Below are positions 1-14,490 of a DNA stretch of 14,490 nt, piece by piece; the first letter of the stretch is position 1, and every line of letters begins with the position of its first letter. The stretch is from Selaginella moellendorffii. Its lineage: Eukaryota; Plantae; Lycopodiophyta. The notes beneath the pieces are model-generated. The model did no database searches. It had not been told where the DNA came from and worked only from the letters and a program-made list of their open reading frames with translations. Made by a program: the position numbers and the translations under genes. Where the stretch lies: contig NW_003314540.1 of NCBI RefSeq assembly GCF_000143415.4, positions 1 to 14,490 on the forward strand. The letters run 5' to 3'.

Positions 1-392
1 AGACTATGTAAATACATGTCCAACATGTGAGCAGGTCAAAGCCGTGACTAAGGCTAGTGGGGGCTTGTTACAAAGCATCCCAATTCCAGATCGCCTATGG
101 AAATGTCTTACGATGAACTTCATCACGGGACTTCCCCCCAGCAGGGGGTTTGATGCGATATTCGTGGTGGTGGACCGATTTTCGAAGATGGCATATTTCA
201 TACCCACCACAACGGAAGTGGATGCAGAAGGTGTGGTGAAGTTGTTCTTCGAACAAGTAGTTCGAGTGCGAGGAAGGCCAGAAGAGATCATCTCAGATCG
301 AGATAAGATCTTCACCAGTAGGTTCTAGAGAACTCTCCTGGAACAATATCGCACCAAGTTGAAATTCAGCACAGCCTACCACCCACAGACAG

Positions 393-439
393 GTATGGGG
401 TATTAAGTCAAGTTTGATGGCACTAACAGTTCTTGATAG
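393..439 (+). other. 47-bp GT-AG spliceosomal intron in the integrase core
   Basis: AG|GTATGG...CACTAAC...TAG|AC. Removal restores the frame, the motif HPQTDGQTER and exact D(35)E spacing. Confidence 0.88.
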
Positions 440-857
440 ACGGACAAACGGAAAGGGTGAATAGGCAGCTAGAGGATTATTTGCGATGCTATGTCTCAGG
501 AGACTAAACCGATTGGGTAAGTCACTTAGGACTTGCGGAAATGTGTTATAACAACTCACCACATTCGAGTATTAGGGTGAGTCCATGGGAAATCATCAAT
601 GGGCGAGCTATTGAAGGTCCTGTGGAGCTCGGCGTGGCCAAGTACCATGGAGAGTTACCTGCAGTGGAGGCATTCATGGTGGAAAGATTCAACATTTGGA
701 ATCTAGTGAGGGATTCCTTGGAACGGGCTCAACAAAGGCAAACCAAATATGCAAACCAAAAGCGTCAGGATGTAGAGTTCCAAGCTGGGGAGAAGGTGTG
801 GCTAAACACCAAGAACCTCAGGCTGCCAAGTGGAATCAACCAGAAGTTGACCCAAAG

Positions 858-909
858 GTAAAAATGCATGTATTCCTGGAATTGAATTGATCTTGAGTTC
901 CTTAACCAG
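858..909 (+). other. 52-bp GT-AG spliceosomal intron at the integrase GPY/F motif
   Basis: AG|GTAAAA...CTTAACCAG|G. Removal restores the frame and KLTQRFA(G>R)PYEI. Confidence 0.85.
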
Positions 910-1681
910 GTTCGCGAGGCCTTACGAAATTGAGGCATGAATCGGTAAAGTGGTTTACCGTCTCCGACTTCCTCGAGAGATAGGGAAGATGCACCCAGTG
1001 TTCCATGTGAACCTACTCAAGCCGTACTTTGATGATCCGCTTCGTAAGGACCAAGTGAGACCTTTACCTGAGGTTATCCAAGGGGAAGAGGAATACAAAG
1101 TGGAGGCCATCCTCAATGTGCGCAAGAGCAAGCGACAAGGACACAAGGTGAGAGAGTTCCATGTGAAGTGGAAAGGATTTCCACATTGCGAAGCAACATG
1201 GGAACCGGAGGAGAACCTAGCGAATGCACGAGATCTAGTGGAGGAATTTCTGCAAAGCAGAACTCTATGTACTTATGCAAAGTTCAATTAAAGTATCAAT
1301 TTGTGAAGTTGAGTAATGGCATATGTTGGGACCCGAAGGCATGCCGAAGGTAAGCTAATTAGCATGGGTTAGCTAAGTCAACCAAGTGTAGAGAACTATG
1401 CCTAACTCCCCACGGGGATGTCGAATCCGTAGATGTATTCTACGGAGGTTGAGTTCGAGTCCCAACCCCCTAGTAAAGCAAGGTTAGTTTCAAGTCCCAA
1501 CCCCATACTAGGGCGTGGTGGGATGAGGAGTATAGGGACACTTATATTCCATTGTCATGGGCTCTTGGCTAGGCAGGCTAACTTAGGCACACCGCTAAGT
1601 GGGGGGATGCCCCCGGAGACATGGTCAACAAGTCGTAGGATTAAAAAGAGAGATGTTCGATGTGGGCATCGAACTTCTTTT

Positions 1682-1694
1682 ATGGGTGGTGGAG
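1682..1694 (+). other. Polypurine-tract-like sequence before a putative 3' LTR stub (1696-1718)
   Basis: ATGGGTGGTGGAG preceded by a T-run and followed by T-TATAAGGAAC, possibly a mutated TGTAAG LTR start. Confidence 0.5.
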
Positions 1695-1718
1695 TTATAA
1701 GGAACTAACTCCCTGAGG

Positions 1719-2118
1719 TGTCATAGGCTAAAAGATCCCCGAAAGCATGACCGAAATGACAAAGAGTTCATCGGATGGGATCGAGTCTAAGATCGAGTCC
1801 AAAACCGACTCTAAGACCGAGTTCAAGATAGAGTCTGGGATCGAGTCTGAGGCCGACTCGGAGACTGAGTTCGAGGCCGAGTTCAAAACCAAGTTTGAGA
1901 TAGAGTCCGAGATCCAAAATCGGGTCCGAGACAGCAAGCAGTCATAAAGAACTCGAAGAAACTTTAGCATACTCTAGAATTGTATGCGGTCTAGAGTCTA
2001 AAGTCTCGAGTCCGGAGTCACGTCAGGTCTAGTCATGCTCCTGATGCGCCTCTTGTGCACGAGGGGATCCATGTGTACTTGCTAGAGAAAGAGAAATTAA
2101 ATATTTGCGGTCTTAACA
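1719..2118. mobile_element. ~400-bp LTR-like element (TG...CA)
   Basis: Starts TGTCAT and ends TTAACA here, but ATGACA in the duplicated copies, which gives a perfect 6-bp terminal inverted repeat. Contains an internal minisatellite. No matching TSD (TGAGG vs AATAG). Confidence 0.6.
1777..1914. repeat. Degenerate 12-bp minisatellite (~11 units, approx. RAGAYCGAGTYY) with 6-bp sub-period
   Basis: gggatcgagtct aagatcgagtcc aaaaccgactct aagaccgagttc aagatagagtct gggatcgagtct gaggccgactcg gagactgagttc gaggccgagttc aaaaccaagttt gagatagagtcc. Confidence 0.9.
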
Positions 2119-2177
2119 AATAGCAATGTGTTTTAGCTAGAGGAACCTTCTAGCATCAAACGATGCTTCCTGGCGCT

Positions 2178-2433
2178 TGCCGCCTAGAAACGCGTTCTTC
2201 TTCCCAATCCCTTGGAAGCAGTGGCCAATAGCACGACGGTGGTGGGTTTTCGGGGTGCCGAGCCCCACAGACGGTGTCGACCGCACCCGCCGGTCGGAGG
2301 GCGGGGAACGACGGAGCGCCGAAGGAGAGTCAGCACGTCGAGTCTCCCGCCGACCCCACTCCCTGGGCTCTACCCGCCGGTGAGCTCATCCGGAGTGTGG
2401 GCTGCCGCCTAGAAAAACGCGTTCTTCTTCCCA
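2178..2433 (+). repeat. 29/31-bp direct repeats (2178-2206, 2403-2433) flanking a GC-rich 196-bp segment upstream of the ORF; possible promoter
   Basis: TGCCGCCTAGAAA(AA)CGCGTTCTTCTTCCCA occurs twice. The region includes ACGCGT, CCAAT and GGGCGGGG motifs and recurs in units 2 and 3. Confidence 0.8.
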
Positions 2434-2469
2434 GGAGAGCTCCTGAGCTTTGTTTCTCCATCTCCAACA

Positions 2470-3237
2470 ATGTCGAAAATCTCCAAGTCGGTGGCCAAGA
2501 GCTCTACATCAACTCATGTTGCGCAGGGCTTGTACGATGGCAGCAAAACGCTGCTCCACAGCTTTGGAGTGGTCTCCTCGTCAGCCATAATTCCAGGCGA
2601 AATCAGAAACCATCTCAAGCCCAAGGATCTCTTTGATTTCGTCGCTCTTGAGCGATCCAGCCCCTCGCTCCTCCGTGCCATCGTCTACTGCCAATCCGGC
2701 CTCACAAACGGCTTCACCAGGAGCTTGACCAAGGGCTTGCAGGGCGCCATCGAAGCAACAGCCGCCCTCGCCACTAACTGCATCAATCCAAAGTCGATCA
2801 TCAACCACGACTTCCTGGTGATTGTGCTGGTCGTCGGGGGCATGGAGCAATTCTTCCTTGCCGAGAAGTGTGGCCCTGGCGAAGAATGCGGGATCAATAT
2901 CACCCTCATTCGCAGTCTAGGCGAGTATACCAATGCCAAGCTGCTGAATTTCGATTGTGAGGATACGCCGCTGGAACTGCACGAGCTCATGAGGATTCTG
3001 GAGAATCATGACCCGCAGTACAGCCATCACGACAAGAATTGCTGGGAGTATGCGATGAACACCACCAAGAAGCTGCTGATGGAGTGCCACCGGAGGAGTG
3101 GAAAGGCCCAGTTTTGCGAGCGGGCCGAGGTGGTCGGGGGTGAGATCGCTGTAGCACAAGCCCAAGGTATGAGCAGTCGAAGTTTCAAGGTGTTTGCGCA
3201 AGCAATCTCCGCGCTTACTTCCAATACTACTTCTTAG
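2470..3237 (+). CDS. Intronless 255-aa hypothetical protein; possible permuted papain-like (NlpC/P60, LRAT/PPPDE-like) cysteine hydrolase
   Basis: Longest ORF, good ATG context (ACAATGTCG), GC3-rich codons. Motifs: H113 in NHDFLVI, E132 in FFLAEK, Y184-x5-N190C191WEYA. Confidence 0.7.
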   Translation: MSKISKSVAKSSTSTHVAQGLYDGSKTLLHSFGVVSSSAIIPGEIRNHLKPKDLFDFVALERSSPSLLRAIVYCQSGLTNGFTRSLTKGLQGAIEATAALATNCINPKSIINHDFLVIVLVVGGMEQFFLAEKCGPGEECGINITLIRSLGEYTNAKLLNFDCEDTPLELHELMRILENHDPQYSHHDKNCWEYAMNTTKKLLMECHRRSGKAQFCERAEVVGGEIAVAQAQGMSSRSFKVFAQAISALTSNTTS

Positions 3238-3416
3238 TTGACGACAATCGATATGGTTACACCCTTATAGCCTTATAGTTATGGTTATGGTTATAGCCTT
3301 ATGTGGTTTACAAAGAGGTTTCTATTATTGAGGTTTATCATTACGATTTATAATATTAAAGTCATTATAAATGTTATGGCTTGCTTTGTTTTGGAAATTC
3401 AACATAGCACTAATAT

Positions 3417-3845
3417 CTAGAGAAGGAGTACTTGCCCAGCAAATGTTGGGTGGTTTATAGAGAGGTTTAATATAAAATGTCTTTATAAACAGTGTTGATT
3501 GTAAAAGCATAAGGATTTTGAGGAAGGAGGTGGCCTTGGTGTGTGGTGTTTTGAATTTTAATTCTAAGTCCATGTGGTGATATGCATCTTGATAAAGCCA
3601 TATAAAGTTACCCATGAGTGAAAATTGGGTGGGGCAAGTAAACTCCAACTCGGTCAAATGTTTCTCCTTGGCATTTAGAAATTGTTAAGCAGTAACCTAA
3701 ACGGATTGGAAATTGTCTTTTGGACATTTTAAATGGAATTTCTGCATTTGATGGTATTAGTGTGATACGTGGGATAAAAACTTTTGTCCCTTTAAATTGC
3801 CCCATCACAATTTCACACTCTAAATGTAAGTCACAAATTTTTCAT
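3417..3845 (-). mobile_element. Helitron 3' fragment: C-terminus of PIF1-like helicase plus terminal hairpin and CTAG
   Basis: [71 protein letters not shown] (internal stop 3608-3610, natural stop 3467-3469). Hairpin CCCAGCA-AA-TGTTGGG at 3435-3450, CTAG at 3417-3420. Confidence 0.88.
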
Positions 3846-4480
3846 TTCCAATTTGCCAGCTTACCTCGTCTATCTGATCAACACCGCCTTCGCTTTAGTT
3901 AAGTTCCCTCGCTAAAGTTCCCACCTATGGTATTAACTCTTACTTGGTCATACTTGATTTCAGCTACTCACTACACGAGCAACAGAGCGTTAGCCATCTA
4001 TCCACGGATTCCCAAATCTCTCCCAATCCCCCTCCCCGGGTTAGACTGAACTTAAGGTTCGGCAACACTCCCTGCAGGCACAAGTAGCCAAGCACACCAA
4101 GCCTGCAGATTCCTAACATCCCTTGGTACTACAAGACTTGATCATGGGACCCTTTAAATCCTAAGTCTTGAGTGCAACACCGGCTTGAGGATGCCGGGGC
4201 AAAACACCCTGGCCTCACGGCCTGGTATGGGTACCTCTACCCCCCCCCTCCCACTTCCATCCCGAAGGGAAGGTCCAAGCCCCTAGGAAGGGCGAGGACT
4301 AATGAGCCACAAGGTACTCAAGTGGGGCACCACTCCACATGAGCCGGGAGCACCGCAATTAGTTTCTCTTTCGGGAGTGGGAGTTGCTCTTGAGCACTTC
4401 CTTGGATGGCCCCTCCGGCACCAGCCAAATCCATGCTCACTCCCACCCAACGCCCCTCGGTCCCAGTCCCAACCTCAAGT

Positions 4481-7400
4481 CATGATGATGCTCTCGCAAT
4501 TGTCACAGAGATAGGTATATCCTTCTGCCATGGTTTTTTCTTTCACTAAGGAACGCATTTTTTCTGTGACCCAGGTATGTCAACCTCCAAAGGCGAACTG
4601 GTTGTGACGATTTTGTACCCTCAAAAGCTCATCTTCAAGTACGATGAGGAGCTCCAAATCGTTGCCTGTCTTCTTTTTATCTACGCTATCATATGCTTTG
4701 TTGTGTCCATATAAAGTTTCAGGTATATATCCATGTTTCTCTATATGAAATCATTTCCGTCTATTGTGGACCAGAACATGAACGGACAGCAGAGTATTTG
4801 GGTGACAAAGTGGATCTACTGTATGTTCATCATAAATCAGATAATGTCGCCACTATTGCCGGTCGCTCTTGAAGTTGGACAAATTCACGCTCTGGAGAGT
4901 TTAAAGGCACGCCTTCTTACCTCCTGTTTCCAGTTCCTTATGTTGTTCTTTCAGAAGCGTGGGGTGTTTTGCCTCAATCCAAAGCGCATAGGTTATCGCT
5001 GGGAAGATACGAGTTTTCTGTTTTGACAAAACTGGGACATTGACAAAAGAGGGACTCGATTTTGTTGGAGTTCAGAGTGTCGTCACTAACTCCTTTGGAC
5101 CAGTTTTATCACTTGAAGGTGGTCAAAGAATTGATGATATTGTTTTGCATGGACTTGCCACATGTCATGCTGTTACAAAGTTCGGAAAGGACTTGGTTGG
5201 AAACCAGGTTGAGGTAAATTTGTAATTTTCGCCAGAAAAGCTTGGATGATCTTTTGTGTGACGGACCTTTAGAATCGTGAGACGAAACGAGTTTGATCAA
5301 TCGAGAGCAACAATGAGTGTTGTTGTGGAGGACAACTCTGGAAACTTTCACATCTACTGCAAGGTTCTTGCGTCTAGCATTTGCTCATTAATATTTCCGT
5401 TCAAGCATGGCAGGGTTCTTTCGAAAAGATTAAGGAGCTGAGCAACGCTCAAAGCCTTCCAGCGGACTACGAGGACAGAGCACGGCTTCAAGCTCTGCAA
5501 GGTTGTTATGTTCTTGGTTTAAGCTACAGGTGCACGCTGTTTCCTCAGTCTTCCATGTTTTGCAGCTGGCTTTTTATACTGTTTTCTTCCCTGAACCTTG
5601 CAGATACCTTGGCCGAGAACTGGCATTTGAAGACATGTTAGCACTACCAAGGAATGAGTTGGAGAAGGACCTGAATTTTATATCTCTGGTCTTGTTTAGG
5701 AACGAGCTCAAGCCGGATAGCTCTGCAGCTATTCATTCTCTCAAAGCTGGAAAGGTACGTTGTCTATATTGATTCCGCTGGAAAACGAAATGCTCCTGGT
5801 CTATAGGTTCGTCCCGTGATGGTTACCGGTGATAATGCTCAATGCGGCCACTATATTGCTAAACAATCTGGTATGTTCTCATCTGACTGTAAGATACTAC
5901 TGGCTGATATAACGAACGACAACAGGTTGGTCTTATTCTTTATGAAAGATCTTTCTAACGATAGCTTTGTCTCTGTAGCGTGGTATGGTCTCCACTGAGT
6001 AGTAAAGTGACAACGGGTATAAGCCGCATGACCACCGAAGAACTACTTCAAAGTAGAGCGAGCTTACTTGAGGACGGGACCTTGGAACTTGCGGTTACGG
6101 GTAAAGCTTTTAATCGCTTACAAGAATCCAAGAGAATGGACGACTTACTTCTTTAAACACGAATCTTCGCAAGATTCACTCCTTCCGATAAGATTCATCT
6201 TGTTCCCTTTGATAATAGTCTCATGCGGTTGGGGACTTGCAGGAGAAAGTGGTAACTATGCATAGAAACCATGGCCTAATCGTGGGAATGTGTGGTGACG
6301 GTGGAAACGATTGTGGAGCGCTAAGGGCCGCTCACGCCGGCATCGCTTTAAGTGCTGCAGAAGCATCGGTGGTGTCTCCATTTACTGCCCGAAACAAATC
6401 GGTCAGTTCAAGCTTTTTTCTGAAACAATCGCGCAAAGTTGATGTTTCTTTGTAGGTCCACGCTGTGGTAGATTCACTACGTGAAGCGCGAGGTGCTCTC
6501 CATACGTCATTCGCATGCTACAAGTTTCTGATTATTTATGGCCTCCAGTTCTCAATATTCAAGCTTTGTTGTTATTGGTAAGCTTGGACTTTCGAGATCT
6601 TCCCGACGCTTAGCGCTTTTAATCCAGGTTTGGGATTATAGCCTGCCAAATGGACTGCATATTTATTGATGGCGTAGCTGTGCTCAGCCTTGGTTATGCC
6701 ATGTCTCGGTGCAACGCTGAAAAAATACTCAACAAGGTTCTTGAAATGTTTAACCGTGGTAATGACAGGTGAGGCCTCTTGGACCTTTAAACGTAGCATC
6801 GGTGCTGGGGCTATGGGGAAGCAACGTTGTGTTCCTGGTGGCTGCAATTTGTTTCATGGCAAGCCAGAAGGATTACGTGAGATGGCCGGCACAGTGAGTG
6901 ATTGGTTTTGTAAAGTTCGTGCTCAAAATCTCGTTTGTTTCAGATACTCTCATGGTGCAAGCTGGTGGACGCTGGGTGACAACTGGGAGTCCACAGTGTT
7001 GTTCTTCACAATGTATTTCCAGTTCATCACGTCCGCATTCGTGTTCTCGTTTGGCTCCAAGTTTCGAAAGACCGTATTCAAAAACCTCTCTTTGATGGTA
7101 AGTCTTCTACTGTCAAGTAGTTTCAAGCACTTAAGTCTTTTCCACGCAGGTTTCGTACTGGTCATTGATCGCTGTGTGCTCTTGTCTACTGCTTCTTCCT
7201 CACAACAAGTTCACGGAAGTATGGCACGTTGCAAGCGAGCAATTCAACCATGCAAACCCCGCCTCTCCAGTTTGGGCGTCTTACCAGGTAAAAAACTCTC
7301 ATTCTTTCCACAACTAAATCATATCTCTTCGTGTCTTCTTCCAGAAAAATGGTGGACAGCCTTCGCCGGCCATGAGCTTTGATTTCCGTTTCAAGCTATG

Positions 7401-7585
7401 GTGGATCATTCTCGCGAGTCTCGCCGTCAATATAGCTTGGCAAAAGGTGGGAATTTTTCCATTCCAGAAGAGAAGAAAAAGAAATTCTCACTTGATAACG
7501 TGCGTTCCAGGTCGTAGTGGAAGGCCCACTGGCACGGATTTTAGCTGCAAAGTATCCCTCAAAGCGACAAAAGCTACACATTTAG
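4481..7585 (+). pseudogene. 5'-truncated multi-exon P5B-type (ATP13A-like) P-type ATPase pseudogene, copy 1
   Basis: Motifs ALAIVTE.GMSTSKGELV, TM4 SPLLP, CFDKTGTLT (D at 5025), KGSFE, FRNELK, MVTGDN, IFARFTP and [12 protein letters not shown], then C-terminal TM exons ending at TAG 7583-7585. Lesions: frameshifts near 4711 and 4992, an 84-bp deletion at 5262 removing an acceptor, stop at 6154-6156, donor GT>AT at 6193. Confidence 0.92.
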
Positions 7586-7802
7586 AGTATATTTTTAGAA
7601 TCGCCAAGAATGTACGGTACCAAAAATTTAAATCTGAAGGGCAAACGCCATCTTGAATTCGTTGGTTAAGCATATATCCTTTTCAAAAGCTCTCTAGAAG
7701 TTTACTCACCGTTTAGCTGCACGTCGCTAAGAACTCTCCGAAAGACAAACGGGGAAATGTTAATCAGTCTCAGGGTCTCATCAATCACCTTCACAGACAG
7801 TC

Positions 7803-7984
7803 AGCAGTCATAAAGAACTCGAAGAAACTTTAGCATACTCTAGACATGTATGCGGTCTAGAGTCTAGAGTCTCGAGTCCAGAGTCTAGTCAGGTCTAGTC
7901 ATGCTCCTGATGCGCCTCTTGTGCACGAGGGGATCCATGTGTACTTGCTAGAGAAAGAGAAATTATATATTTGCGGTCATGACA
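7803..7984. mobile_element. Truncated copy of the 1719-2118 LTR-like element
   Basis: Homologous to 1937-2118; ends ATGACA. Confidence 0.6.
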
Positions 7985-8335
7985 AATAGCAATGTGTTTT
8001 AGCTAGAGGAACCTTCTAGCATCAAACGATGCTTCCTGGCGCTTGCCGCCTAGAAACGCGTTCTTCTTCCCAATCCCTTGGAAGCAGTGGCCAATAGCAC
8101 GACGGTGGTGGGTTTTCGGGGTGCCGAGCCCCACAGACGGTGTCGACCGCACCCGCCGGTCGGAGGGCGGGGAACGACGGAGCGCCGAAGGAGAGTCAGC
8201 ACGTCGAGTCTCCCGCCGACCCCACTCCCTGGGCTCTACCCGCCGGTGAGCTCATCCGGAGTGTGGGCTGCCGCCTAGAAAAACGCGTTCTTCTTCCCAG
8301 GAGAGCTCCTGAGCTTTGTTTCTCCATCTCCAACA

Positions 8336-9046
8336 ATGTCGAAAATCTCCAAGTCGGTGGCCAAGAGCTCTACATCAACTCATGTTGCGCAGGGCTTGTA
8401 CGATGGCAGCAAAACGCTGCTCCACAGCTCTGGAGTGGTCTCCTCGTCAGCCATAATTCCAGGCGAAATCAGAAACCATCTCAAGCCCAAGGATCTCTTT
8501 GATTTCGTCGCTCTTGAGCGATCCAGCCCCTCGCTCCTCCGTGCCATCGTCTACTGCCAATCCGGCCTCACAAACGGCTTCACCAGGAGCTTGACCAAGG
8601 GCTTGCAGGGCGCCAGCGAAGCAACAGCCGCCCTCGCCACTAACTGCATCAATCCAAAGTCGATCATCAACCACGACTTCCTGGTGATTGTGCTGGTCGT
8701 CGGGGGCGTGGAGCAATTCTTCCTTGCCGAGAAGTGTGGCCCTGGCGAAGAATGCGGGATCAATATCACCCTCATTCGCAGTCTAGGCGAGTATACCAAT
8801 GCCAAGCTGCTGAATTTCGATTGTGAGGATACGCCGCTGGAACTGCACGAGCTCATGAGGATTCTGGAGAATCATGACCCGCAGTACAGCCATCACGACA
8901 AGAATTGCTGGGAGTATGCGATGAACACCACCAGGAAGCTGCTGATGGAGTGCCACCGGAGGAGTGGAAAGGCCCAGTTTTGCGAGCGGGCCGAGGTGGT
9001 CGGGGGTGAGATCGCTGTAGCACAAGCCCAAGGTATGAGTAGTTGA
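8336..9046 (+). CDS. Second copy of the hypothetical papain-like ORF, 236 aa (shortened by CGA>TGA)
   Basis: About 6 substitutions relative to 2470-3237; the H/E/C motifs are retained. Confidence 0.65.
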   Translation: MSKISKSVAKSSTSTHVAQGLYDGSKTLLHSSGVVSSSAIIPGEIRNHLKPKDLFDFVALERSSPSLLRAIVYCQSGLTNGFTRSLTKGLQGASEATAALATNCINPKSIINHDFLVIVLVVGGVEQFFLAEKCGPGEECGINITLIRSLGEYTNAKLLNFDCEDTPLELHELMRILENHDPQYSHHDKNCWEYAMNTTRKLLMECHRRSGKAQFCERAEVVGGEIAVAQAQGMSS

Positions 9047-9272
9047 AGTTTCAAGGTGTTTGCGCAAGCAATCTCCGCGCTTACTTCCAATACTACTTCT
9101 TAGTTGACGACAATCGATATGGTTACACCCTTATAGCCTTATAGTTATGGTTATGGTTATAGTTTACAAAGAGGTTTCTATTATTGAGGTTTATCATTAC
9201 GATTTATAATATTAAAGTCATTATAAATGTTATGGCTTGCTTTGTTTTGGAAATTCAACATAGCACTAATAT

Positions 9273-9701
9273 CTAGAGAAGGAGTACTTGCCCAGCAAAT
9301 GTTGGGTGGTTTACAGAGAGGTTTAATATAAAATGTCTTTATAAACAGTGTTGATTGTAAAAGCATAAGGATTTTGAGGAAGGAGGTGGCTTTGGTGTGT
9401 GGTGTTTTGAATTTTAATTCTAAGTCCATGTGGTGATATGCATCTTGATAAAGCCATATAAAGTTACCCATGAGTGAAAATTGGGTGGGGCAAGTAAACT
9501 CCAACTCGGTCAAATGTTTGTCCTTGGCATTTAGAAATTGTTAAGCAGTAACCTAAACGGATTGGAAATTGTCTTTTGGACATTTTAAACGGAATTTCTG
9601 CATTTGATGGTATTAGTGTGATACGTGGGATAAGAACTTTTGTCCCTTTCAATTGCCCCATCACAATTTCACACTTTAAATGTAAGCCAAAAATTTTTCA
9701 T
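9273..9701 (-). mobile_element. Helitron 3' fragment, copy 2
   Basis: Same helicase motifs (KCQGQTFDRVG), hairpin, and CTAG at 9273-9276. Confidence 0.88.
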
Positions 9702-9981
9702 TTCCAATTTGCCAGCTTACCTCGTCTATCTGATCAACACCGCCTTGGCTTTAGTTAAGTTCCCTCGCTAAGGTTCCCACCTATGGTATTAACTCTTACT
9801 TGGTCATACTTGATTTCAACTACTCACTATACGAGCAACGGAGCGTTAGCCATCTATCCACGGATTCCCAAATCTCTCCCAATCCCCCTCCCCGGGTTAG
9901 ACTGAACTTAAGGTTAGGCAACACTCCCTGCAAGCACAAGTAGCCAAGCACACCAAGCCTGCAGATTCCTAACATCCATTG

Positions 9982-10175
9982 TGTAAGCAACCAAAGGGAA
10001 CGACTTGAGAGACGGTCCATGGGGTTCAAATATAGAGGGAAAGGGCCCATGAATAAGAGTGCACCCCTTTTTCCAATCGGTTAAGGGTCTTGGGATATTT
10101 GGGGTTAAGCGTCTTTGTGTTTGAATAGTACTGGGTTGGGTGACCTCCCGGGAAGTCCAAACTCAGGAGCTTACA
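9982..10175 (+). mobile_element. 194-bp solo LTR with a 5S rRNA-derived segment (Cassandra TRIM-like)
   Basis: Terminal inverted repeats TGTAAGC...GCTTACA. 5-bp TSD CATTG/CCTTG, with an empty site (single CCTTG) in unit 1 at ~4121. 10103-10158 aligns without gaps to the 5S A-box/IE/C-box region. Confidence 0.88.
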
Positions 10176-10538
10176 CCTTGGTACTACAAGACTTGATCAT
10201 GGGACCCTCTAAATCCTAAGTCTTGAGTGCAACACCAGCTTGAGGATGCCGGGGCAAAACACCCTGGCCTCACGGCCTGGTATGGGTACCTCTACCCCCC
10301 CCCCCCCCCCACTTCCATCCCGAAGGGAAGGTCCAAACCCCTAGGAAGGGTGAGGACTAATGAGCCACAAGGTACTCAAGTGGGGCACCACTCCACATGA
10401 GCCGGGAGCACCGCAATTAGTTTCCCTTTCGGGAGTGGGAGCTGCTCTTGAGCACTTCCTTGGATGGCCCCTCCGGCACCAACCAAGTCCATGCTCACTC
10501 CCACCCAATGCCCCTCGGTCCCAGTCCCAACCTCAAGT

Positions 10539-13500
10539 CATGATGATGCTCTCGCAATTGTCACAGAGACAGGTATATCCTTCTGCCATGGTTTTTTCTT
10601 TCACTAAGGAACGCATTTTTTCTGTGACCTAGGTATGTCAACCTCCAAAGGCGAACTGGTTGCGACGATTTTGTACCCTCAAAAGCTCATCTTCAAGTAC
10701 GATGAGGAGCTCCAAATCGTTGCCTGTCTTCTTTTTATCTACGCTATCATATGCTTTGTTGTGTCCATATAAAGTTTCAGGTATATATCCATGTTTCTCT
10801 ATATGAAATCATTTCCGTCTATTGTGGACCAGAACATGAACGGACAGCAGAGTATTTGGGTGACAAAGTGGATCTACTGTATGTTCATCATAAATCAGAT
10901 AATGTCGCCACTATTGCCGGTCGCTCTTGAAGTTGGACAAATTCACGCTCTGGAGAGTTTAAAGGCACGCTTTCTTACCTCCTGTTTCCAGTTCCTTATG
11001 TTGTTCTTTCAGAAGCGTGGGGTGTTTTGCCTCAATCCAAAGCGCATAGGTTATCGCTGGGAAGATACGAGTTTTCTGTTTTGACAAAACTGGGACATTG
11101 ACAAAAGAGGGACTCGATTTTGTTGGAGTTCAGAGTGTCGTCACTAACTCCTTTGGACCAGTTTTATCACTTGAAGGTGGTCAAAGAATTGATGATATTG
11201 TTTTGCATGGACTTGCCACATGTCATGCTGTTACAAAGTTTGGAAAGGACTTGGTTGGAAACCAGGTTGAGGTAAATTTGTAATTTTCGCCAGAAAAGCT
11301 TGGATGATCTTTTGTGTGACAGGTGAAAATGTTCTCAGCTGTGGGATGGAATTTGATAGAGTCCGCAAAGAGTCCCCCAGTCGTTTCAGATGGTTCCGGA
11401 TCACGGACCTTTAGAATCGTGAGACGAAACGAGTTTGATCAATCGAGAGCAACAATGAGTGTTGTTGTGGAGGACAACTCTGGAAACTTTCACATCTACT
11501 GCAAGGTTCTTGCGTCTAGCATTTGCTCATTAATATTTCCGTTCAAGCATGGCAGGGTTCTTTCGAAAAGATTAAGGAGCTGAGCAACGCTCAAAGCCTT
11601 CCAGCGGACTACGAGGACAGAGCACGGCTTCAAGCTCTGCAAGGTTGTTATGTTCTTGGTTTAAGCTACAGGTGCACGCTGTTTCCTCAGTCTTCCATGT
11701 TTTGCAGCTGGCTTTTTATACTGTTTTCTTCCCTGAACCTTGCAGATACCTTGGCCGAGAACTGGCATTTGAAGACATGTTAGCACTACCAAGGAATGAG
11801 TTGGAGAAGGACCTGAATTTTATATCTCTGGTCTTGTTTAGGAACGAGCTCAAGCCGGATAGCTCTGCAGCTATTCATTCTCTCAAAGCTGGAAAGGTAC
11901 GTTGTCTATATTGATTCCGCTGGAAAACGAAATGCTCCTGGTCTATAGGTTCGTCCCGTGATGGTTACCGGTGATAATGTTCAATGCGGCCACTATATTG
12001 CTAAACAATCTGGTATGTTCTCATCTGACTGTAAGATACTACTGGCTGATATAACGAACGACAACAGGTTGGTCTTATTCTTTATGAAAGATCTTTCTAA
12101 CGATAGCTTTGTCTCTGTAGCGTGGTATGGTCTCCATTGAGTAGTAAAGTGACAACGGGTATAAGCCGCATGACCACCGAAGAACTACTTCAAAGTAGAG
12201 CGAGCTTACTTGAGGACGGGACCTTGGAACTTGCGGTTACGGGTAAAGCTTTTAATCGCTTACAAGAATCCAAGAGAATGGACGACTTACTTCTTTAAAC
12301 ACGAATCTTCGCAAGATTCACTCCTTCCGATAAGATTCATCTTGTTCCCTTTGATAATAGTCTCATGCGGTTGGGGACTTGCAGGAGAAAGTGGTAACTA
12401 TGCATAGAAACCATGGCCTAATCGTGGGAATGTGTGGTGACGGTGGAAACGATTGTGGAGCGCTAAGGGCCGCTCACGCCGGCATCGCTTTAAGTGCTGC
12501 AGAAGCATCGGTGGTGTCTCCATTTACTGCCCGAAACAAATCGGTCAGTTCAAGCTTTTTTCTGAAACAATCGCGCAAAGTTGATGTTTCTTTGTAGGTC
12601 CACGCTGTGGTAGATTCACTACGTGAAGCGCGAGGTGCTCTCCATACGTCATTCGCATGCTACAAGTTTCTGATTATTTATGGCCTCCAGTTCTCAATAT
12701 TCAAGCTTTGTTGTTATTGGTAAGCTTGGACTTTCGAGATCTTCCCGACGCTTAGCGCTTTTAATCCAGGTTTGGGATTATAGCCTGCCAAATGGACTGC
12801 ATATTTATTGATGGCGTAGCTGTGCTCAGCCTTGGTTATGCCATGTCTCGGTGCAACGCTGAAAAAATACTCAACAAGGTTCTTGAAATGTTTAACCGTG
12901 GTAATGACAGGTGAGGCCTCTTGGACCTTTAAACGTAGCATCGGTGCTGGGGCTATGGGGAAGCAACGTTGTGTTCCTGGTGGCTGCAATTTGTTTCATG
13001 GCAAGCCAGAAGGATTACGTGAGATGGCCGGCACAGTGAGTGATTGGTTTTGTAAAGTTCGTGCTCAAAATCTCGTTTGTTTCAGATACTCTCATGGTGC
13101 AAGCTGGTGGACGCTGGGTGACAACTGGGAGTCCACAGTGTTGTTCTTCACAATGTATTTCCAGTTCATCACGTCCGCATTCGTGTTCTCGTTTGGCTCC
13201 AAGTTTCGAAAGACCGTATTCAAAAACCTCTCTTTGATGGTAAGTCTTCTACTGTCAAGTAGTTTCAAGCACTTAAGTCTTTTCCACGCAGGTTTCGTAC
13301 TGGTCATTGATCGCTGTGTGCTCTTGTCTACTGCTTCTTCCTCACAACAAGTTCACGGAAGTATGGCACGTTGCAAGCGAGCAATTCAACCATGCAAACC
13401 CCGCCTCTCCAGTTTGGGCGTCTTACCAGGTAAAAAACTCTCATTCTTTCCACAACTAAATCATATCTCTTCGTGTCTTCTTCCAGAAAAATGGTGGACA

Positions 13501-13727
13501 GCCTTCGCCGGCCATGAGCTTTGATTTCCGTTTCAAGCTATGGTGGATCATTCTCGCGAGTCTCGCCGTCAATATAGCTTGGCAAAAGGTGGGAATTTTT
13601 CCATTCCAGAAGAGAAGAAAAAGAAATTCTCACTTGATAACGTGCGTTCCAGGTCGTAGTGGAAGGCCCACTGGCACGGATTTTAGCTGCAAAGTATCCC
13701 TCAAAGCGACAAAAGCTACACATTTAG
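10539..13727 (+). pseudogene. 5'-truncated P5B-type ATPase pseudogene, copy 2
   Basis: Same exons, frameshifts, stop and donor mutation as copy 1, but retains 11321-11404 (acceptor plus VKMFSAVGWNLIES...). Confidence 0.92.
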
Positions 13728-13944
13728 AGTATATTTTTAGAATCGCCAAGAATGTACGGTACCAAAAATTTAAATCTGAAGGGCAAACGCCATCTTGAAT
13801 TCGTTGGTTAAGCATATATCCTTTTCAAAAGCTCTCTAGAAGTTTACTCACCGTTTAGCTGCACGTCGCTAAGAACTCTCCAAAAGACAAACGGGGAAAT
13901 GTTAATCAGTCTCAGGGTCTCATCAATCACCTTCACAGACAGTC

Positions 13945-14126
13945 AGCAGTCATAAAGAACTCGAAGAAACTTTAGCATACTCTAGACATGTATGCGGTCT
14001 AGAGTCTAGAGTCTCGAGTCCAGAGTCTAGTCAGGTCTAGTCATGCTCCTGATGCGCCTCTTGTGCACGAGGGGATCCATGTGTACTTGCTAGAGAAAGA
14101 GAAATTATATATTTGCGGTCATGACA
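13945..14126. mobile_element. Truncated copy of the LTR-like element, unit 3
   Basis: Same as 7803-7984. Confidence 0.6.
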
Positions 14127-14490
14127 AATAGCAATGTGTTTTAGCTAGAGGAACCTTCTAGCATCAAACGATGCTTCCTGGCGCTTGCCGCCTAGAAACG
14201 CGTTCTTCTTCCCAATCCCTTGGAAGCAGTGGCCAATAGCACGACGGTGGTGGGTTTTCGGGGTGCCGAGCCCCACAGACGGTGTCGACCGCACCCGCCG
14301 GTCGGAGGGCGGGGAACGACGGAGCGCCGAAGGAGAGTCAGCACGTCGAGTCTCCCGCCGACCCCACTCCCTGGGCTCTACCCGCCGGTGAGCTCATCCG
14401 GAGTGTGGGCTGCCGCCTAGAAAAACGCGTTCTTCTTCCCAGGAGAGCTCCTGAGCTTTGTTTCTCCATCTCCAACAATGTCGAAAATCT
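13945..14490 (+). repeat. Tandem segmental duplication, unit 3 (partial, runs off the window; includes the ORF start ATG at 14478)
   Basis: Appears identical to 7803-8348. Confidence 0.97.

Follow-up and report, generated by a model that had tools for sequence, protein, structure and literature searches.

Two spliceosomal introns in the integrase gene of an abundant chromovirus-type element of Selaginella moellendorffii, spliced in RNA and kept in the DNA copies examined

Loss of introns is the textbook proof of LTR retrotransposition and serves as its reporter. As a rule, plant LTR elements are said to lack introns, Ogre and the EVD-type copia elements being the notable exceptions (2025 review, PMC12786077), and the passages of an Arabidopsis survey that concern Ty3/gypsy elements record no conserved splicing among them (PMC5580714). 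Ogre, a Ty3/gypsy element of the Tat clade, has a single intron (mean length ~274 nt) that separates GAG-PROT from RT; some of the transcripts lose it by splicing, which allows pol to be translated, and the genomic copies keep it (PMC6317226, PMC12786077). In BARE1 and in EVD and the Arabidopsis Ty1/copia elements, spliced and unspliced RNA coexist (PMC3735527, PMC5580714); BARE1 packages only its uncapped, unspliced RNA pool (PMC3735527), and copia elements limit the dose of integrase by gag splicing or by degradation of Pol (PMC5580714). Introns are also found in Ginger1, whose Gypsy-like DDE transposase has a GPY/F motif and 1-4 introns, and which has TIRs of 40-270 bp, a 4-bp TSD, no RT and an OTU, Ulp1 or PHD tail (PMC2836005). 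GingerRoot, present in Selaginella, likewise has a Gypsy-like DDE enzyme (PMC6839031). Penelope-like elements are retroelements that retain introns after retrotransposition, and they belong to an unrelated class with a telomerase-like RT and a GIY-YIG endonuclease, without integrase or true LTRs (bioRxiv 10.1101/2021.04.23.441226). A paper on fungal DIRS/Ngaro elements (PMC3783388) nowhere mentions introns.

The closest described element is SM1-Galahad, a Galadriel-related LTR chromovirus of S. moellendorffii (Novikov et al. 2012, PMC3350952), which was reported as hundreds of copies of ~95% identity, none of them found intact. It is ~7.5 kb long, with LTRs of 1076 and 1146 bp, a tRNA-Met PBS and a PPT, and its LTR of more than 1 kb bears a poly-G tract of 11-25 nt. 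ORF1, of 3885 bp, encodes gag-PR-RT-RH-core-INT and is free of a chromodomain; it is followed by an ORF of 316 bp and then by one of 113 aa with a CHD_I chromodomain, the latter (ORF3) being stated as both 309 bp and 113 aa, which are mutually inconsistent. The main text of that paper contains neither "intron" nor "splic".

Here we describe an element at the start of a 14,490-nucleotide stretch of S. moellendorffii DNA (contig NW_003314540.1, positions 1 to 14,490; henceforth the window), whose integrase gene comprises the following features.

2..392, + strand: integrase exon A, with the end of the zinc finger (CxxC) and the core domain up to HPQT; the window begins within the gene
393..439, + strand: intron 1, 47 nt, phase 1, GT..AG, CTAAC 13 nt from its end
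440..857, + strand: integrase exon B, with the catalytic Glu (451-453), the end of the core, the linker and the start of the SH3 C-terminal domain
858..909, + strand: intron 2, 52 nt, phase 2, GT..AG, AGGT at both borders, TTGAT 19 nt from its end
910..1291, + strand: integrase exon C, with the GPY/F-SH3 domain and a group-I chromodomain

Exon A matches rve (E=1e-10, with X placed at the stop) and the Ty3 integrase structure 7q5b (E=5.6e-23), while exon C matches the Pfam families Chromo (E=1.5e-16) and SH3_Tf2-1 (E=2.4e-12), with PF00385 at E=1.3e-16 in a separate search. When the two inserts are removed, a single frame runs through the zinc finger, HPQTDGQTER, the SH3 domain and the chromodomain, and the spacing between the second catalytic Asp (296-298) and the Glu (451-453) becomes exactly 35 residues, as in 81 of the 82 relatives that have both motifs. 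The first-pass annotation had proposed that splicing restores HPQTDGQTER, the 35-residue spacing and the GPY/F motif; this holds for the first two, but the window copy has RPY at the expected GPY site, Asn instead of Asp at the first position of the catalytic triad (116-118), and premature in-frame stops in exon A (326-328), exon B (505-507) and exon C (938-940). Since these three stops persist after intron removal, splicing alone cannot restore this copy, and its integrase is dead. The D,D(35)E integrase and the GPY/F-SH3 domain of a chromovirus are present here in decayed form, and so is its C-terminal chromodomain, which shows no such decay in the search above.

Protein searches revealed no near family member: the closest protein to exon A reached only 58%, exon B did not exceed 45% among the best 150 matches, and exon C gave four distant matches. 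Among 393 retrieved proteins, none ends just past HPQT, as read-through into intron 1 would predict. A Pfam RT domain was found in 48 of the 120 homologues listed, and OTU or Ulp1 in none of them. A quick tree of 77 rows, which combined the 70 top-scoring long matches (of 135) with named rows and contained no clade-labelled references, placed the integrase in a 12-row group with all five land-plant-labelled rows (SH-aLRT 90), a placement that does not fix its clade.

The two inserts were first noticed as GT-AG sequences of 47 and 52 nt with AG/GT donors, and these coordinates and lengths hold. Neither length is a multiple of 3, so that both shift the frame. Intron 1 divides HPQT from DG, 11 nt upstream of the catalytic Glu codon, and would impose an in-frame stop at 404-406 if retained; intron 2 sits immediately upstream of the GPY/F motif. 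Intron-less relatives align without a gap across junction 1 in 251 of 252 cases and across junction 2 in 198 of 206, and upon shuffling of the insert letters GT..AG ends arose at both of these homology-fixed breakpoints in ~0.2% of cases. Their size matches that of the introns in the neighbouring host ATPase, as the first reading had also claimed: 13 of the 17 gaps between blocks of that gene were resolved as introns, of 48-74 nt. One of these ATPase introns (10965-11012) has GC..AG ends. On the grounds of their GT..AG ends, host-like size, branch-like motifs and precise removal from RNA, the inserts are spliceosomal (U2-type) introns. The CTAAC proposed earlier as a branch motif in intron 1 stands, whereas the TTAAC proposed for intron 2 lies too near the 3' end (~4 nt) and is altered in other copies and is therefore disfavoured; TTGAT, ~20 nt upstream of the 3' end, is the better candidate. 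Short direct repeats mark the borders (388-392/435-439 and 856-859/908-911), with AGGT flanking intron 2, and in other copies exon A and intron 1 both end in a 5-nt repeat. These repeats fit intron gain by insertion at a staggered break and also a plain splice-site consensus.

Both exact exon joints, 392/440 and 857/910, which the first-pass annotation had proposed as the junctions of spliced RNA, occur among the contigs of X20, a presumed RNA run whose contigs total 31 million letters. Contig 9, at depth 3.1 and with 79 letters on its shorter side, skips exactly the 47 nt with their GT..AG ends, and contig 10, at depth 7.33 and with 93 letters on that side, skips exactly the 52 nt; the depth of X20 is zero within both introns, which is the pattern expected of S. 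moellendorffii RNA and not of DNA. Junction 1 is also present in one read from X21, which is on record as an RNA-seq run and belongs to another study; the support for junction 2 is the single X20 contig, and neither the X20 contigs nor the X21 read span both junctions. The spliced RNAs derive from other copies of the family, ~90-95% alike to the window copy, and these transcribed copies have sense codons at all three stop sites, so that exons B and C are open there. Transcription is very low, with 11, 6 and 3 reads in ~12% of X21, X22 and X23, respectively. Three RNA reads from two samples (one in X21, two in X22) enter intron 2, stop matching at 878 and continue into unlike sequence; since all three break off at 878, they do not demonstrate full-length unspliced RNA. 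The break may be due to a cryptic donor joined to an acceptor that lies outside, or the reads may come from a transcribed copy that is rearranged; GT stands at 878-879 in most of the depth of run X12.

The introns are kept throughout the DNA copies examined. In the DNA run X1, 18,743 contigs match window positions 1-2000, with differences that are mainly C/T and G/A, and the summed depth, which is not a copy number, is 629,000 at position 429 and 503,000 at 882, similar in magnitude to that over the exons. No intron-less junction was found among the best 15 of 54 X1 joints (lowest depth 163). Similarly, in X12, a run with another organism label and of uncertain kind, contigs cross both introns and none of 132 contains either intron-less joint, variants at a depth of 2.4-5.5 being detectable. 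A diverged subfamily in X12 (863-894), with 56 differences per 360 nt in one contig, retains intron 2, and an X12 loose end carries a variant of intron 2; the retention in the diverged subfamily indicates that this intron is older than the youngest burst. Outside these runs, a gapped junction pattern matched three loci in metagenome contigs, all of them chance matches to GACA microsatellites without integrase; 17 protein-pattern stretches in viral contigs yielded no confirmed case and the DNA pattern was likewise empty there; and prokaryote genome contigs held no family locus. It had been considered at the outset that the inserts might be private to the window copy and unspliced; instead, they are family-wide and spliced in RNA. 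We conclude that a complete integrase requires splicing, that splicing occurs, and that the examined DNA copies retain both introns.

The 3' end of the element has the following features.

1292..1683, + strand: 3' untranslated region of the element, family-wide as judged by continuous X1 depth and X21 RNA reads
1684..1694, + strand: purine-rich tract, probable PPT, with 9 of 11 purines, abutting the LTR edge
1696..1932, + strand: probable 3' LTR, first ~237 nt, judged by the edge behaviour of X1 contigs

At the left edge of this last feature (1696-1698), 28 X1 contigs diverge into mixed flanks (agreement 0.43) with loose letters that end in TG, as expected for 5' and solo LTRs that start at 1696. 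At the other side, 28 X1 contigs run on past 1932 in common sequence (agreement 0.83); because other copies share sequence beyond this point, the LTR of the window copy is cut by the adjoining tandem unit. The succession of a probable PPT and a probable TG-starting LTR, a further chromovirus feature, is thus found here. A PPT-like tract had been noted before; a purine tract is indeed present, but the one that abuts the LTR edge is 1684-1694. The untranslated region contains a 35-nt tandem duplication (1446-1515) and the LTR a 12-nt tandem array (1764-1919) whose length varies among copies. The window has no inverted repeats of at least 25 nt, and only one end of the element is present in it.

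From 1929 to 14490 the window is filled by a ~6-kb unit repeated in tandem ~2.1 times, with starts at 1929, 7795 and 13937 and an identity of 98-99.9% between copies. Every unit contains an ORF of 255 aa and a fragment like a helicase, together with a P5-type ATPase gene that is truncated at its 5' end and covers residues ~469-1250 of P0125.

2470-3237 and 8336-9046, + strand: 255-aa ORF, single exon, GC-rich; the second copy ends earlier
3608-3841 and 9464-9697, - strand: helicase-like fragment, Pfam E=0.11 to UvrD_C_2 and Viral_helicase1

A Pfam search with the 255-aa ORF returned nothing above the cut-off. The fragment on the minus strand resembles the C-terminal end of a Helitron/PIF1-type helicase, and the tandem unit might owe its origin to a Helitron. 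One exon of the ATPase shows 100% identity to an S. moellendorffii protein, the next named species reaching 71%, and the ATPase of tandem copy 1 lacks ~140 nt near 5262. Part of the tandem arrangement could be an assembly artefact.

Read without splicing, the window copy reproduces the published layout of SM1-Galahad: its first frame ends at 404-406 in intron 1, an ATG ORF of 318 bp (541-861, 106 aa) lies in exon B, and the chromodomain is encoded in exon C by a GTG ORF of 113 aa (950-1291). The two elements share the species, the integrase in three pieces, the sizes of the last two pieces (316 versus 318 bp, and 113 versus 113 aa), the group-I chromodomain in the last piece, the total length and the high copy number; the 3885 bp of ORF1 plus the 1289 bp seen here sum to 5174 bp, compared with an internal region of ~5278 bp as published (PMC3350952). 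They differ in that SM1-Galahad is published as separate ORFs, whereas the window element is one gene interrupted by introns. On this match by layout, not sequence, the window element is very likely SM1-Galahad, and spliced introns probably account for the unexplained three-ORF integrase of that family, unrecognised in the published account. As for the other five chromovirus-group families of S. moellendorffii, their pol frame is described as unbroken or with simple stops (PMC3350952). SM-Tcn1, which like the window element is a group-I chromodomain chromovirus of this species and has an LTR with a tandem array, in its case having GAGTCTCGAG, was rejected as a match because its integrase is clearly different by eye and unbroken at HPQTDG (PMC2864245).

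Taking these results together, we consider it probable that the window holds a dead copy of an abundant chromovirus-type element of S. moellendorffii, probably SM1-Galahad, whose introns are spliced in RNA and kept in DNA, with integrase made from the spliced RNA and the unspliced RNA packaged and copied. The upstream gag-PR-RT-RH, the PBS and the ~1.1-kb LTRs of the element are taken from the layout match to SM1-Galahad. If the family moves through RNA, the RNA that is copied must be unspliced. This RNA would encode Gag-PR-RT-RH followed by a truncated integrase that stops at 404-406 and has neither the catalytic Glu nor the GPY/F motif nor the chromodomain, and the doubly spliced RNA would encode the whole polyprotein, so that splicing would determine how much integrase this single-ORF element makes. 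Because the spliced RNA would still have the PBS, the PPT and both ends, something must block its copying: the RNA pools might be separate as in BARE1, packaging might be carried out by Gag translated from the same unspliced RNA, a packaging signal might lie inside an intron, or intron-less progeny might be selected against and fail to spread. With clearly less confidence, we still lean towards the stronger form of this reading, in which an autonomous LTR retrotransposon fixed two gained integrase introns over hundreds of rounds of RNA copying, its integrase coming solely from doubly spliced RNA that is strictly kept from the particles.

Other explanations would dispense with part of this scheme. 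The element may be a non-autonomous passenger that depends on a relative without introns, for example SM2-Galahad, for its mobility in trans; its own integrase would then be irrelevant, and the introns would persist because the master RNA that is packaged carries them. SM2-Galahad is indeed a close, single-ORF and recently active relative in the same species, no intact copy of SM1-Galahad was reported (PMC3350952), the transcripts are as scarce as given above (11, 6 and 3 reads), and BARE2 provides a precedent for such parasitism (PMC3735527). Yet two separate, precise and frame-restoring introns are the trace expected of selection on a working integrase, the copies that are transcribed have no stop at any of the three sites, and this model, too, depends on packaging of the unspliced RNA; we regard it as unlikely. 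A little less likely still is that some spliced RNA does get copied, at low frequency, with intron-less copies being rare, old or purged and no strict sorting of the RNAs. Spliced RNA would retain the PBS, the PPT and both R regions, the best 15 of the 54 X1 joints reach down to a depth of ~163 and leave room for rarer intron-less copies below it, and contigs lose rare variants; against this, these 15 joints are without the intron-less form compared with summed intron depths of 500,000-630,000, and X12 gave 0 of 132 contigs at a depth where variants of 2.4-5.5 are visible.

An element that has no RNA stage can carry introns, and ours might be of this kind: a DNA transposon of the Ginger type or an integrase gene that the host has domesticated. 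The resemblance of the Ginger1 transposase to Gypsy integrase, with its GPY/F motif and 1-4 introns (PMC2836005), speaks for this possibility, as does the fact that the RT of our element is inferred, the window beginning inside integrase. But the C-terminal domain is a chromodomain followed by a stop and not OTU, Ulp1 or PHD; on its right the element ends in a purine tract and a repeat, and this repeat meets varied flanks at its left edge in the fashion of an LTR; the SM1-Galahad element that matches the layout has an RT (PMC3350952); and GingerRoot is described as being without GPY and chromodomain, unlike the window element (PMC6839031). We therefore hold this origin to be very improbable. 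For a domesticated host gene in particular, a low copy number and an intact frame would be expected, and the thousands of decayed contigs (18,743) together with the three stops rule it out. The first-pass annotation's preference for an LTR retrotransposon lineage is thus supported by the LTR-type edge after the purine tract and by the layout match to an element with RT, and it is the reading that we retain.

Set against the described systems, the working logic is that of Ogre, but the element is no Ogre and the arrangement differs: instead of one longer intron between GAG-PROT and RT, the window element has two ~50-nt host-like introns inside integrase, one of them within D(35)E, and only integrase depends on splicing. 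The initial view that Ogre and copia are exceptions of a different kind is overstated for Ogre, in which intron removal is needed for RT-RH-INT and the copies keep the intron. In BARE1 and EVD the coexistence of spliced and unspliced RNA is as we propose here, but the polarity is opposite: there, splicing destroys Pol and yields a replication-incompetent Gag-only RNA (PMC3735527, PMC5580714), whereas in the window element it completes Pol. What is new is the presence of two ordinary host-type introns within one catalytic domain across an abundant family. We found no prior report of introns in a chromovirus integrase in the literature covered; an earlier annotation may exist in subscription papers, Repbase or Additional files 1 and 3 of REXdb, which were outside this scope.

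If the stronger reading is true, this family would be a natural counterpart of the classic intron-loss test for retrotransposition, without the loss of introns. It makes testable from sequence the question of how an RNA that is translated is separated from an RNA with identical ends that is copied. The arrangement also suggests a further route by which a single-ORF element may keep integrase low in proportion to Gag. With a sister family, SM2-Galahad, that consists of one ORF, SM1-Galahad would offer a rare datable case of intron gain. Pipelines based on ORFs would score every such copy as broken, which is probably why SM1-Galahad seemed to be without an intact copy, and similar families may hide in other genomes with short introns, scored as broken in the same way.
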